Source: a virus | Lineage: Duplodnaviria; Heunggongvirae; Uroviricota; Caudoviricetes | DNA length: 10,001 nucleotides | Virus record (IMG/VR): IMGVR_UViG_641736163_000009 | Direction: 5' to 3' (one strand) | Position numbers: made by a program | Part shown: in pieces, positions 1 through 3,000 of the stretch | Numbering within the stretch: position 1 is the stretch's first letter | Layout of the letters: each line of letters starts with the position of its first letter

Positions 1-3000
1 GCATTCTGTCTGGCGTCACCGCCACTGGCACACATCTGCCTTCACGGGGATTTACAACGATTTGGCCGCCGCCTCAGCCTGTATGTGAACACGGCAGCGG
101 AAGCCATTCGCGCCCTGTCGATGCAGATGCCGGGCTTTCGCCTTCAGATGAACGAAGGCTGGTACCAGATACGTATTGCCGGTGAAGACACGGCACCGGA
201 GGTGGTGTACGCCCGCCTTCACGAACAGCTGGGTGAGGGAACGGTCATCCACATTGTGCCGCGACTGGCCGGGGCCGGAAAGGGTGGACTGCAGATTGTG
301 TTGGGGGCGGCAGCCATCGTGGGCTCTTTCTTCACTGCCGGGGCATCAATGGCGTTATGGGGTTCAGCCCTGGCAGCCGGTGGTTTTTCTGCCACCACGA
401 TGCTGTTTTCACTTGGAGCCAGCATGATTCTGGGCGGTGTGGCCCAGATGCTGGCCCCGAAGGCAAAAACACCGGATTACCGCGCAACGGATAACGGCAG
501 ACAGAACACGTACTTTTCCTCGCTGGATAACATGATTGCCCAGGGGAACCCGATGCCGGTGCCTTACGGGGAAATGCTGGTTGGCTCCCGCCGTATATCC
601 CAGGACATCAGTACCCGTGATGAAGGCGGTGACGGGAAGGTGGTGGTTATCGGGCGGCAGGGGTAAAAAGAATAAAAAAATCCCGCAGAGTTGCGGAACT
701 GCGGGAGCGTTACGAAGATTAACTATAGAGAATTATTCTTATGTCACGACAAAAACATTAACTCAGAGAGGGAGAATGTGCCGTTCTTTTCAGGGAGAAA
801 GGATTTATCGTCCTGAGGAATAAAGGTAAGGGGCCCGCCCCTTACCTGACTGATTATTGAATGATGCCGCAGGCCATTCTCGCACCACCACCGCCCAGGG
901 GCTCCGGATGGTCATGATGGTTATCACCGCCAGCATGAAGCATGAGAGAACGCCCTTTAATCTCTTTTAATGAGTTCAGTCTCGGGGCCAGGACCGGGTA
1001 GTTCGCTTTTCCGTCATGCGTCACGAACAGCGCAGGGAGGTCGCCCAGGTGTCCATCCGGAGACCAGGGGCCAAGATGTTTGCCGGTGTTTTTCGGGTCA
1101 AAGTGACCGCCAGCCGATAATGCTGCGACCGGTTTTCCGTCTTTCAGTGCCGGGGCGCAATTTCCTTTTTCGTGCACATGAAAACCATGAATGCCTTCAG
1201 ACAGAGAGTGAAGGGCTGGTGTGAACAGCAGACCGTAGGGGGTCTCCTGAATGGTTATTTTTCCAATGCTGACTTCTTTTCCGTCAGCACTGACAAGGTT
1301 CATTGGGACTTCCTGTTCTGCTGCGTATCCGCATGATGCTGCTGTCAGCATGGCAATGGCAGCAATGATTTTACATTTCATAAAACCCTCATTAATTCCG
1401 TTAACAGACTGAGCTTGCTGGTTACAGGGTAACAAACAGCGTTCTGATGATATCGCGCAATAGCTGTGCAGTATCCTATCACTGCGATTAATAATACCAA
1501 TTGAGAGGAACATTATGGGTAAAGGTGGCGGCAGGGCGCACACACCTCGTGAGGCGAAGGACAATCTCAAATCCACGCAGATGATGAGCGTGATTGACGC
1601 CATTGGTGAAGGGCCGATTGAAGGTCCGGTGAAGGGGCTGCAGAGTATCCTGGTGAACAAAACCCCGCTGACGGACACGGACGGTAATCCTGTGATACAT
1701 GGTGTGACCGCGGTCTGGCGCGCCGGGGAGCAGGAGCAGACACCACCTGAAGGCTTTGAGTCCTCCGGGGCGGAAACCGCACTGGGCGTGGAAGTGACGA
1801 AGGCAAAGCCGGTGACGCGCACCATTACATCCGCGAACATTGACCGCCTGCGGGTCACCTTCGGGGTGCAGTCACTGGTGCAGACCACGTCAAAGGGTGA
1901 CCGAAACCCGACATCCGTCCGCCTGCTGATTCAGTTACAGCGTAACGGTAACTGGGTGACGGAAAAGGATGTCACCATTAACGGCAAGACCACCTCGCAG
2001 TTTCTGGCGTCGGTGATTCTGGATAATCTGCCTGAGCGGCCCTTTAACATCCGGATGGTCCGGGAGACAGCGGACAGCACCTCGGACCAGCTGCAGAATA
2101 AGACGCTGTGGTCGTCATACACCGAAATCATCGATGTGAAACAGTGCTACCCGAACACGGCCATTGTGGGGATGCAGGTGGATGCGGAGCAGTTTGGTGG
2201 TCAGCAGATGACGGTGAACTACCATATCCGCGGTCGCATCATCCAGGTGCCGTCAAACTATGACCCGGAAAAACGCACGTACAGTGGTATCTGGGACGGC
2301 AGTCTGAAACCGGCATACAGCAACAATCCGGCCTGGTGTCTGTGGGACATGCTGACTCACCCGCGCTACGGCATGGGAAAACGTCTGGGGGCGGCGGATG
2401 TGGACAAGTGGGCGCTGTATGCCATCGGGCAGTACTGCGACCAGATGGTGCCGGATGGCTTCGGGGGCACCGAGCCGCGGATGACCTTCAATGCGTACCT
2501 GGCACAACAGCGTAAGGCGTGGGATGTTCTCAGTGATTTCTGCTCGGCGATGCGCTGTATGCCGGTATGGAACGGTCAGACGCTGACGTTCGTTCAGGAC
2601 CGCCCGTCGGATGTGGTGTGGCCGTACACCAACAGCGATGTGGTGGTGGATGATAACGGCGTGGGATTCCGCTACAGCTTCAGTGCCCTGAAGGACCGGC
2701 ACACGGCGGTGGAGGTGAATTACACCGACCCGCAGAACGGCTGGCAGACCTCCACGGAACTGGTGGAAGACCCGGAAGCCATACTGCGCTACGGGCGCAA
2801 TCTGCTGAAGATGGACGCGTTCGGCTGTACCAGCCGCGGTCAGGCCCACCGTGCCGGACTGTGGGTGATAAAGACCGGACTGCTGGAAACGCAGACGGTG
2901 GATTTCACGCTCGGGTCTCAGGGGCTGCGGCACACACCCGGTGACATCATTGAAATCTGTGATAACGACTATGCCGGGACCCTGACCGGCGGACGTGTCC

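Follow-up and report, generated by a model that had tools for sequence, protein, structure and literature searches.

A sodC-F cassette antisense between tail genes I and J of a lambdoid prophage, beside the body and terminator of an EcOnc22-family small RNA

In phage lambda the tail genes I and J are separated by only 60 bp, whereas in the window analysed here, the whole 10,001-nucleotide stretch of IMG/VR record IMGVR_UViG_641736163_000009, the gap between them (667-1514) measures 848 bp. What fills this gap, and how much of it belongs to a single insert? A sequence-only reading had proposed that I and J, adjacent in lambda, are parted by an 840-bp moron carrying a periplasmic Cu/Zn superoxide dismutase gene (sodC), antisense to the tail genes and equipped with its own tandem terminators. 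The adjacency in lambda is confirmed by the short gap there, and an intact minus-strand sodC does lie between I and J in the window. The best explanation overall, to which we assign a probability of roughly 0.85, is an opposite-strand sodC-F cassette of 745 bp at the I-J junction, standing beside the surviving body and terminator of an EcOnc22-family small RNA (sRNA). The coordinates of the features are collected in Table 1.

Table 1. Features of the I-J junction and its flanks, in window coordinates.
Feature	Position	Strand	Basis or detail
Tail assembly gene I, 3' part	1-666	+	Pfam Lambda_tail_I 3.7e-10; 5' end upstream of the window
Promoterless body and terminator of an EcOnc22/23/24-family sRNA, backbone	667-769	-	Homology, position, strand
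Distal intrinsic terminator	667-706	-	Stem 706-699/688-681, U-tract 680-667
Spacer between the two terminators, cassette-specific	770-814	-	Only in sodC-bearing loci
Proximal intrinsic terminator, sodC's own	815-848	-	10-bp GC-rich stem 848-825, tail UUUAUUCCUC 824-815
sodC-F, Cu,Zn superoxide dismutase precursor, 175 aa	854-1381	-	Pfam, NCBIfam and PDB matches, Sakai identity
sodC upstream region, 40.6% GC	1382-1514	-	Ribosome-binding site GAGGG at 1390-1386
Tail tip / host specificity gene J	1515-4973	+	Six GpJ/tail-tip Pfam domains, E 1e-20 to 1e-42

The window comes from the tail region of a lambdoid prophage of E. coli, in which the genes follow the order I, sodC, J, lom, tail fibre, tccP2, IS1 and espV'. 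Gene I is open in frame from base 1, shares 70% nucleotide identity with lambda I, and its protein matches the I proteins of locus L002; in J, one further Pfam match is sub-threshold. As expected of a moron, the flanking genes are adjacent in relatives (in lambda, and with sodC absent from 148 of 150 related phage records), and the base composition is unlike that of the neighbours, the GC content being 50.5% in 770-1514, 59.8% in I and 57.8% in J. A terminator of its own, the proximal hairpin, is also found inside cassette-specific sequence. Its lower GC content sets the cassette apart as foreign to the tail operon.

The sodC product matched Pfam Sod_Cu (PF00080; 3.9e-32, 111.9 bits against a cut-off of 28.9), the NCBIfam SodC equivalog NF007628 (218.4 bits, cut-off 165) and bacterial Cu,ZnSODs of known structure in the PDB (E 1e-56 to 1e-63). 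The sequence-only reading had been staked on the metal-binding histidines and on a signal peptide, and both are present. In alignment with human SOD1 and E. coli SodC, residues H68, H70, H149, H93, H102, H111 and D114 are invariant, so that all the ligands tested are kept (in human numbering, Cu H46, H48 and H120; bridging H63; Zn H71, H80 and D83); the catalytic arginine R168 and, of the disulfide, C171 are invariant too, and C75 matches the cysteine of E. coli SodC. The N-terminus, encoded by codons 1322-1381 and read directly, has K2/K4, an 11-residue hydrophobic stretch, the lipobox AASC (14-17) and a GYA↓A site; the same AASC and GYA↓A sites were given by LipoP and fractionation of SodC-F in D'Orazio et al. 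(2008, PMC2569942).

The expected likeness to prophage-borne sodC alleles was borne out, with 100% protein identity to ECs_1989 of E. coli O157:H7 Sakai (SodC-F, prophage Sp10) and 58.8% amino acid identity to Gifsy-2 SodCI. At least 1000 public contigs carry the exact sodC-F sequence, and the insert, always annotated as sodC, is present in 559 of the 5426 complete E. coli genomes. The moron found here is a known, published and characterised gene, and the window belongs to the SodC-F group. Outside this group, a search for SodC-F relatives with one genome per species gave a best identity of at most 69%, none of 80 loci had I/J flanks, and no donor was found.

The expression in lysogens that had been proposed for sodC is already published for the identical protein: as D'Orazio et al. 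(2008, PMC2569942) showed, SodC-F is made in lysogens in log phase, in stationary phase and in anaerobic culture, independently of RpoS. The same paper reports measured superoxide dismutase activity for purified SodC-F1, a dimeric enzyme that is partly lipid-anchored and also has a soluble form, and mutants that are sensitive to H2O2. The description of the enzyme as periplasmic is correct for the soluble form but incomplete, since the lipobox AASC also gives a lipid-anchored one; SodC-F is exported in part as a soluble periplasmic protein, cut by signal peptidase I after A20, and in part as a lipoprotein anchored through Cys17. For the identical protein, the literature shows that it is made from the repressed prophage and removes superoxide outside the cytoplasm. 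Protection against the phagocyte burst, which had also been suggested, is demonstrated for Salmonella SodCI, but for the E. coli enzyme the evidence is limited to H2O2 sensitivity and accumulation inside Caco-2 cells (PMC2569942).

The region upstream of sodC also holds, on the plus strand, the ribosome-binding site of J. A sigma-70 scan upstream of sodC gave no 9/12 consensus site; under relaxed settings, TTGGTA (1500-1495) with TGaTAGGAT (1481-1473) at a spacing of 16 bp appeared as a weak promoter candidate, and TGgTATTAT (1499-1491) as an alternative one. The Salmonella gene sodCI is under PhoPQ control, and by eye we saw nothing convincing as a PhoP-box-like repeat upstream of sodC. A 299-bp fragment upstream of sodC-F drives lacZ, according to PMC2569942. 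Small open reading frames in 667-853 and 1382-1514 are mechanical only.

Regarding the terminators, a scan over 500-1700 gave 5 sites against 1.1 expected, and its two best sites, 847-824 and 700-679, are both on the minus strand. The proximal hairpin (825-848), which begins 5 nt past the sodC stop codon, folded at -17.9 kcal/mol (z -2.6) with the tail UUUAUUCC, an interrupted and moderately U-poor tract which makes some read-through plausible. The distal hairpin (681-706), which abuts the I stop codon, folded at -14.4 kcal/mol (z -3.2) with the tail U7AUUCUUUUU. The positions originally read for the two terminators, 815-846 and 674-706, are correct once the U-tracts are counted in. The spacer 770-814 contains no gene, only mechanical open reading frames, and there is no sigma-70-like site in 770-823.

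The statement that these are sodC's own tandem terminators stands in so far as two minus-strand hairpin/U-tract terminators do follow the gene, but only the proximal one is the cassette's own. Similarity to sodC-less phages breaks sharply at 769/770 and resumes at 1503-1515. The 103 bp of 667-769, distal terminator included, are common to at least 44 records of sodC-less Stx phages at 80-93% identity; this segment is backbone, and the figure of 840 bp for the insert has to be given up. As delimited by these comparisons, the sodC cassette proper is 770-1514, 745 bp long and with one terminator of its own; it holds the coding sequence of sodC-F, preceded by an upstream region with a ribosome-binding site and followed by a single intrinsic terminator (825-848). 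In place of the cassette, the sodC-less junctions hold a conserved block of 131 bp. Simple deletion was considered and rejected: the Smith-Waterman score of this block against the cassette fell below that of shuffled controls, and the lack of similarity between the two implies replacement and not deletion.

The block belongs to a junction that is occupied in its own right. In sodC-less relatives, I and J are separated by a module of about 240 bp which encodes an sRNA of about 90 nt antisense to the tail genes (predicted length 91-98 nt) and also has a plus-strand terminator just before J; the full module is present in 1890 of 5426 E. coli genomes. Its conserved features are the -10 ([TA]ATAAT or TATCAT), the 5' GCGUUA..U6 and the terminator. 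Segment 667-769 aligns with the transcribed part of this module, downstream of the conserved -10, and its body is 93% identical to the L002-type variant, with the U-rich stretch and the Hfq-type terminator intact. In the window the -10 is destroyed at the cassette junction, where TAATAATT is replaced by ATTCTCCC. The cassette stands where sodC-less relatives hold the sRNA promoter region, either direction of exchange being possible, and sodC would have one terminator of its own and one captured. An incoming cassette would have met an occupied junction and displaced the promoter half of the resident noncoding module, while the sRNA body and terminator would survive as 667-769.

The module can be assigned to known transcripts. 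Hfq peaks named EcOnc22, EcOnc23 and EcOnc24 were reported in Sakai Sp15, Sp14 and Sp11, antisense to tail genes (Tree et al. 2014, Table S2); on northern blots they appear as a band of about 85 nt, and they are destabilised in the absence of hfq (Tree et al. 2014). We placed these peaks in the I-J gaps of the three prophages, homologous to the 667-769 region; the EcOnc coordinates follow an older Sakai version, and the offset of about +128 to +146 bp given by the AgvB marker at 1.94 Mb was assumed to be valid at 2.17-2.90 Mb; with zero offset the peaks would fall in the half of these gaps nearer to J, off the predicted body. In homology, in position and in strand by the I stop codon, 667-769 agrees with EcOnc22/23/24, although against Sakai EcOnc22 itself the body matches only over the 3' ~70 nt (80.8%), the 5' half being another variant. 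A promoter of its own, as in a gene of this family, is what 667-769 lacks: with the -10 replaced and no promoter-like site beside it, the segment is a remnant or a captured 3' part, an incomplete gene. Table S2 of Tree et al. 2014 holds no Hfq peak for the sodC-bearing Sp10 junction.

Across 13 variants of the sRNA, RNAalifold gave an invariant terminator stem with a variable loop and no covariation, so that structural support does not extend beyond the terminator. A mini-ORF of 6 codons within the sRNA body does not have a conserved frame. About 44.5 bp upstream of the sRNA's predicted start there is a TGTGA-N6-TCAGA palindrome; this distance is off the canonical CRP class I/II positions, and for this reason CRP control is not claimed. 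Rfam gave no family, neither for the whole window at gathering thresholds nor at E<=5 for 600-1600 and a sodC-less junction; the best match, STnc400 at 814-890, had 23 bits against a gathering threshold of 80 (E 0.076) and was dismissed as chance. We also set aside AgvB/AsxR and PasA-D, EHEC prophage sRNAs which sit near Q/PR' and the lysis genes. A full-text search with sequence strings of the distal terminator and body returned no paper.

Concerning transcription through the junction, no T-tract follows either hairpin on the plus strand, and it holds that late transcription must cross the antisense sodC; during lytic growth, Q-modified transcription would pass on the plus strand across the whole insert into J. 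In the opposite sense, transcripts of sodC that escape the proximal terminator would stop at the captured distal one, by the I stop codon, and antisense transcription would in this way be kept out of the tail genes. Both termination at either hairpin and read-through between them are inferred.

The comparison with known systems places the window close to Sakai Sp10, which has the same layout (I, sodC on the minus strand, J). The window shares both terminators and the upstream region with the Sakai SodC-F1/SodC-F2 system, at a nucleotide identity of about 99%; the differences are a distal hairpin loop 6 nt longer in the Sakai/L001 variant and the genes downstream, nleG in Sakai and tccP2, IS1 and espV' here. 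In Salmonella Fels-1, sodCIII (STM0924) is likewise a Cu,ZnSOD gene antisense between gpI and gpJ homologues, with a divergence comparable to that of the flanking tail genes. However, SodCIII has 60% amino acid identity to SodC-F, its non-coding flanks are unrelated, the gene lies about 53 bp from I without a second terminator or an EcOnc22-like segment, and a tail-sense hairpin with a T-tract stands just before J. Gifsy-2 SodCI, a lysogen-expressed virulence factor according to the background in PMC2569942, is also encoded antisense within the tail gene cluster, but between a lom-like gene/gpM and gpL and not between I and J. The site and orientation in Fels-1 and the antisense position in Gifsy-2 show a recurrent layout. 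The chromosomal E. coli SodC has the same fold and ligands and is also exported, but is 59% identical to SodC-F; PMC2569942 describes it as monomeric, RpoS-dependent, restricted to stationary phase and only soluble. The EcOnc22/23/24 loci share with 667-769 the terminator and 3' body, the position and the strand, and differ in having the -10, the palindrome and the plus-strand pre-J terminator where the window has the sodC cassette. Finally, sodC resembles the lambda morons lom and bor (the Juhala/Hendrix concept) as an extra gene with its own signals that sits within the late region and is expressed from the prophage. Of these, lom also occurs in this window; it runs in the direction of the late operon, and sodC runs against it.

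Other accounts of the junction have to be weighed against this reading. If the whole of 667/674-1514 were one moron that brought both terminators as a tandem pair, it would fit that both hairpins follow sodC on its own strand, with nothing else annotated between, and that the two always occur together in sodC-bearing loci (L001, L007, L008 and Sakai Sp10). Nevertheless, the distal hairpin, together with some 100 bp around it, recurs in the sodC-less records up to the sharp 769/770 boundary, and the full module, in its 1890 genomes, has a conserved -10 of its own and a mapped Hfq-bound sRNA, which makes a single moron highly improbable; nor are the sodC-less loci likely to be scarred deletion derivatives, because they hold 131 bp of unrelated conserved sequence there. 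It is unlikely, too, that sodC is ancestral at the I-J junction of the phage lineage and the version with the sRNA promoter derived, with sodC itself an old, exchanged module and not a recent insertion. Fels-1, with sodCIII at the same junction and orientation, speaks for such an age, as do the similar nucleotide identities between the window and Fels-1 (I 72.5%, sodC 69.7%, 5' J 72.0%), which is what co-divergence would give. Against it stand the dissimilar non-coding flanks of the two sodC genes and the missing 667-769 segment in Fels-1, the commoner sodC-less junctions (1890 against 559 genomes; 148 of 150 phage records), the short lambda gap and the foreign base composition of the cassette.

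Another account takes 667-823 as a working sRNA gene, either 3'UTR-derived through read-through from sodC or driven by a cryptic promoter in 770-823. The intact body, U-rich stretch and Hfq-type terminator, still 93% identical to the L002-type variant, and the interrupted proximal U-tract would agree with it; we consider it quite unlikely in view of the destroyed -10, the stretch 770-823 devoid of promoter-like sites and the absent Hfq peak at Sp10 in the table of Tree et al. It is decidedly doubtful that the sodC cassette has made the resident Hfq-binding sRNA into its own 3' UTR and coupled its expression to that of sodC-F; read-through at a leaky proximal terminator would then extend the sodC mRNA, with the EcOnc22-type body and terminator at its 3' end, and this longer transcript could be a ligand of Hfq or a source of a processed sRNA. 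In that case a phage regulatory RNA would depend for its expression on that of sodC-F and no longer on its native promoter, the one with the CRP-like site.

Returning to the sodC-F cassette beside a surviving EcOnc22-family body and terminator, the finding of sodC itself matters little, as hundreds of genomes already have the sodC-F of EHEC prophages annotated, and both its biochemistry and its genetics have been characterised. The new detail is limited to one point: on homology and position, the second terminator belongs to a resident small-RNA gene and not to sodC. What is gained is a precise set of bounds for the cassette, 770-1514 with one terminator of its own. Furthermore, the I-J junction of Stx-type lambdoid phages proves to be occupied by a widespread, unannotated sRNA module of the EcOnc22 family, part of which is displaced by sodC, and this is useful for prophage annotation. 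It may likewise serve studies of EcOnc22-24, because the sodC-bearing prophages are natural promoter-deletion alleles.

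The window derives from a lambdoid E. coli prophage, of which it covers the distal tail region. The closest complete genomes match it with ~95% identity across 86-88% of its length, and in them the prophage is adjoined by a tRNA-Ser gene and hyaA. A second ORF (6975-7376, + strand) overlaps the tail fibre gene and carries another Phage_fiber_C domain; it looks like an alternative C-terminal cassette of the fibre. The tccP2 repeats (7523-8140) comprise 4.4 copies of a 141-bp unit (47 aa, proline-rich) at 97% identity. IS1, located between tccP2 and the truncated espV-like gene, is absent from the closest genomes, whose matches end at ~8723-8739.

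Genes and minus-strand hairpins of the window
Feature	Position	Strand	Remarks
gene I	1-666	+	5' end outside window
distal hairpin	681-706	-	8-bp stem, -14.4 kcal/mol; tail U7AUUCUUUUU reaching I stop codon
proximal hairpin	825-848	-	10-bp stem, -17.9 kcal/mol; tail UUUAUUCC
sodC	854-1381	-	175-aa product
J	1515-4973		
lom	5041-5640		
collagen-repeat tail fibre	5792-7105	+	collagen triple-helix repeats, Phage_fiber_C end
TccP2/EspF(U)-type type III effector gene	7502-8395	-	Pfam EspF repeat x5, E 3e-142
IS1	8755-9452	-	InsA and InsB domains
truncated espV-like gene	9618-10001		

The I-J gap measures 848 bp (667-1514), versus 60 bp in lambda, and sodC lies within it antisense to both tail genes, as the sequence-only reading had it. 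Its product matches Pfam Sod_Cu (3.9e-32), the NCBIfam SodC equivalog (218 bits, cut-off 165) and solved bacterial Cu,ZnSODs (E ~1e-62). Aligned to human SOD1 and E. coli SodC, the protein retains all the defining residues, namely the Cu ligands H68, H70 and H149, the bridging H93, the Zn ligands H102, H111 and D114, R168 and the pair C75/C171; the 21 N-terminal residues form a classical export signal. Both results agree with the periplasmic Cu/Zn enzyme that had been proposed. The GC content of the insert is 50.5%, compared with 58-60% for the flanking genes.

What was observed is confirmed and was in the main interpreted correctly, but it is already known. The protein is 100% identical to ECs_1989 of the O157:H7 Sakai prophage Sp10, which shares the layout I, sodC (minus strand), J, and its unchanged sequence is encoded on at least 1000 public contigs; the 848-bp gap sequence is present in 559 of 5426 complete E. 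coli genomes, always annotated as sodC. These same genes, sodC-F1 as well as sodC-F2, form the subject of D'Orazio et al. 2008 (PMC2569942). That paper describes their expression from the prophage, in anaerobic culture as well as in log and stationary phase, independently of RpoS, a 299-bp upstream fragment that drives lacZ, raised H2O2 sensitivity of the mutants, and accumulation of SodC-F in bacteria within Caco-2 cells. It further describes a dimer more stable than chromosomal SodC, partitioned between a soluble periplasmic and a lipid-anchored form, a partition explained by the AASC lipobox, and places the two EDL933 copies in CP-933R and CP-933V. The window SodC is intact, exported and identical to an enzyme whose activity and lysogen expression are demonstrated. 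In Salmonella Fels-1, sodCIII is likewise antisense between the gpI and gpJ homologues; in Gifsy-2, sodCI is also antisense, but between a lom-like gene/gpM and gpL. With these precedents, the classic moron layout recognized by the sequence-only reading is right, but textbook material. In Sp10 (locus L022, 10485-10674) the locus tags skip from ECs_1987 (I) to ECs_1989 (sodC), with no ECs_1988, which suggests that a small ORF in this spacer was once annotated and later withdrawn. In a search with one genome per species, the nearest SodC homologues were chromosomal genes of Serratia, Pseudomonas, Pragia and others (identity <=69%), none of 80 homologue loci was flanked by I or J, and no donor was evident.

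A terminator scan of 500-1700 gave 5 sites against 1.1 expected, the best two being the minus-strand hairpins downstream of sodC, as had been proposed; neither has a T-tract on the plus strand. The previous reading took the insert as a single 840-bp moron with both terminators its own, and this is contradicted by the sodC-less phages. sodC is absent in 148 of 150 matching phage records, and in the phages lacking it similarity to the window passes the I stop, breaks sharply at 769 and returns at 1503-1515. When 667-860 was used alone as query, 667-769, with the distal hairpin and its U-tract, proved common to 44 sodC-less phage records; therefore, the distal terminator is part of the backbone and lies outside the insert. 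On these alignments the sodC cassette is 745 bp long (770-1514), and only the proximal of the two predicted terminators is specific to it. It replaces a block of 131 bp to which it has no similarity (Smith-Waterman score below shuffled controls). It is possible that sodC was instead ancestral at the I-J junction, given that Fels-1 has it at the same site and that the nucleotide identity between Fels-1 and the window is similar in I (72.5%), sodC (69.7%) and J (72.0%); however, the non-coding flanks of the two sodC genes are unrelated.

The I-J gap without sodC is formed by a conserved noncoding module of ~240 bp that carries no annotation (for example, L002 1768-2005); 1890 of 5426 complete E. 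coli genomes contain it, at 6268 places in all. Eleven distinct sodC-less copies were aligned, read antisense to the tail genes. They share the order palindrome, -10, 5' end, body, UUAAUCUUC and terminator stem, where the palindrome (TGTGA-N6-TCAGA) and the stem are invariant, the -10 (TATAAT, AATAAT or TATCAT) and the RNA 5' end (GCGUUA..U5-8) are conserved, and the body is variable and A/U-rich; the predicted RNA is 91-98 nt. The module corresponds to a published, uncharacterised sRNA family, EcOnc22, EcOnc23 and EcOnc24, homologous Hfq-CRAC peaks in Sakai Sp15, Sp14 and Sp11 (Tree et al. 2014, PMC4104026, Table S2). Northern blotting showed EcOnc22 as a band of ~85 nt, and this RNA was destabilised in delta-hfq; the targets of the family were still listed as unknown in a 2021 review. 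In the current Sakai record the peaks fall within 240-bp I-J gaps, antisense to the tail genes, and the three gaps have one and the same sequence. The published coordinates refer to an older Sakai version, offset by ~+128 to +146 bp at 1.94 Mb (marker AgvB): with this offset the peaks fall on the predicted sRNA body, without it they would lie in that half of the same gap which is nearer to J, and in either case they are inside the module. Sp15, the Sakai Stx1 prophage, has the EcOnc22 module and no sodC at I-J (L018 4692-4931), and Sp10 has sodC.

The cassette junction falls exactly at the sRNA -10, with ATTCTCCC instead of TAATAATT directly upstream of the shared TCTCTG. The -10 being replaced, 667-769 is a promoterless sRNA body plus terminator, and the distal terminator is inherited from a resident EcOnc22-family sRNA gene. 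In Table S2 of PMC4104026 the Sp10 junction, which bears sodC, has no Hfq peak, and it is quite unlikely that the captured body still functions as a 3'UTR-derived RNA.

Other features of this junction deserve mention. The palindrome (L002 ~1905-1926, + strand AAATGTGAAGATATTCAGAATT; lacking in the window) matches the CRP consensus at 9/10 core positions. It is situated upstream of the EcOnc22-type -10; measured from its centre, the predicted start is ~44.5 bp away, a spacing that is not canonical for CRP. Also present in the sodC-less phages, and lacking in the window, is a strong intrinsic terminator in the tail sense, with a 10-bp stem followed by T5, at ~30-50 bp before the start of J (L002 1941-1974; L018 4742-4765, minus strand of L018); between its variants a T:A pair is exchanged for C:G, a compensatory change. 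A comparable hairpin with a T-tract directly precedes J in Fels-1 (L010 3893-3874). In locus L013 (162-645) the gap reaches 484 bp because the module (terminator, body, -10, palindrome) is tandemly duplicated, the copies having diverged in body sequence. In L015 and L016 (~560-736), ~180 bp of unrelated sequence with a perfect GC-rich hairpin (AAAACCCCGGTATC..GATACCGGGGTTT) follows the palindrome in place of the pre-J terminator, which suggests a hot spot of recombination at the I-J junction, where several fillers can take each other's place.

Regarding expression of the insert, the promoter scan found no consensus promoter upstream of sodC; the best candidates are TTGGTA-16-TGaTAGGAT at 1500-1473 or an extended -10, TGgTATTAT, at 1499-1491, and transcription would start somewhere within 1382-1680. 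Most sodC transcripts would stop at the proximal terminator, and those escaping it may be stopped by the captured distal one, abutting I. In lytic growth the late transcript, antiterminated by Q, would pass through the insert into J.

What is added here to the known sodC moron is the exact limits of the cassette and the reassignment of the distal terminator to the remnant of an EcOnc22-family sRNA gene. In Stx-type lambdoid prophages, the place between I and J can be taken either by a widespread sRNA module that has gone unannotated or by the sodC moron.
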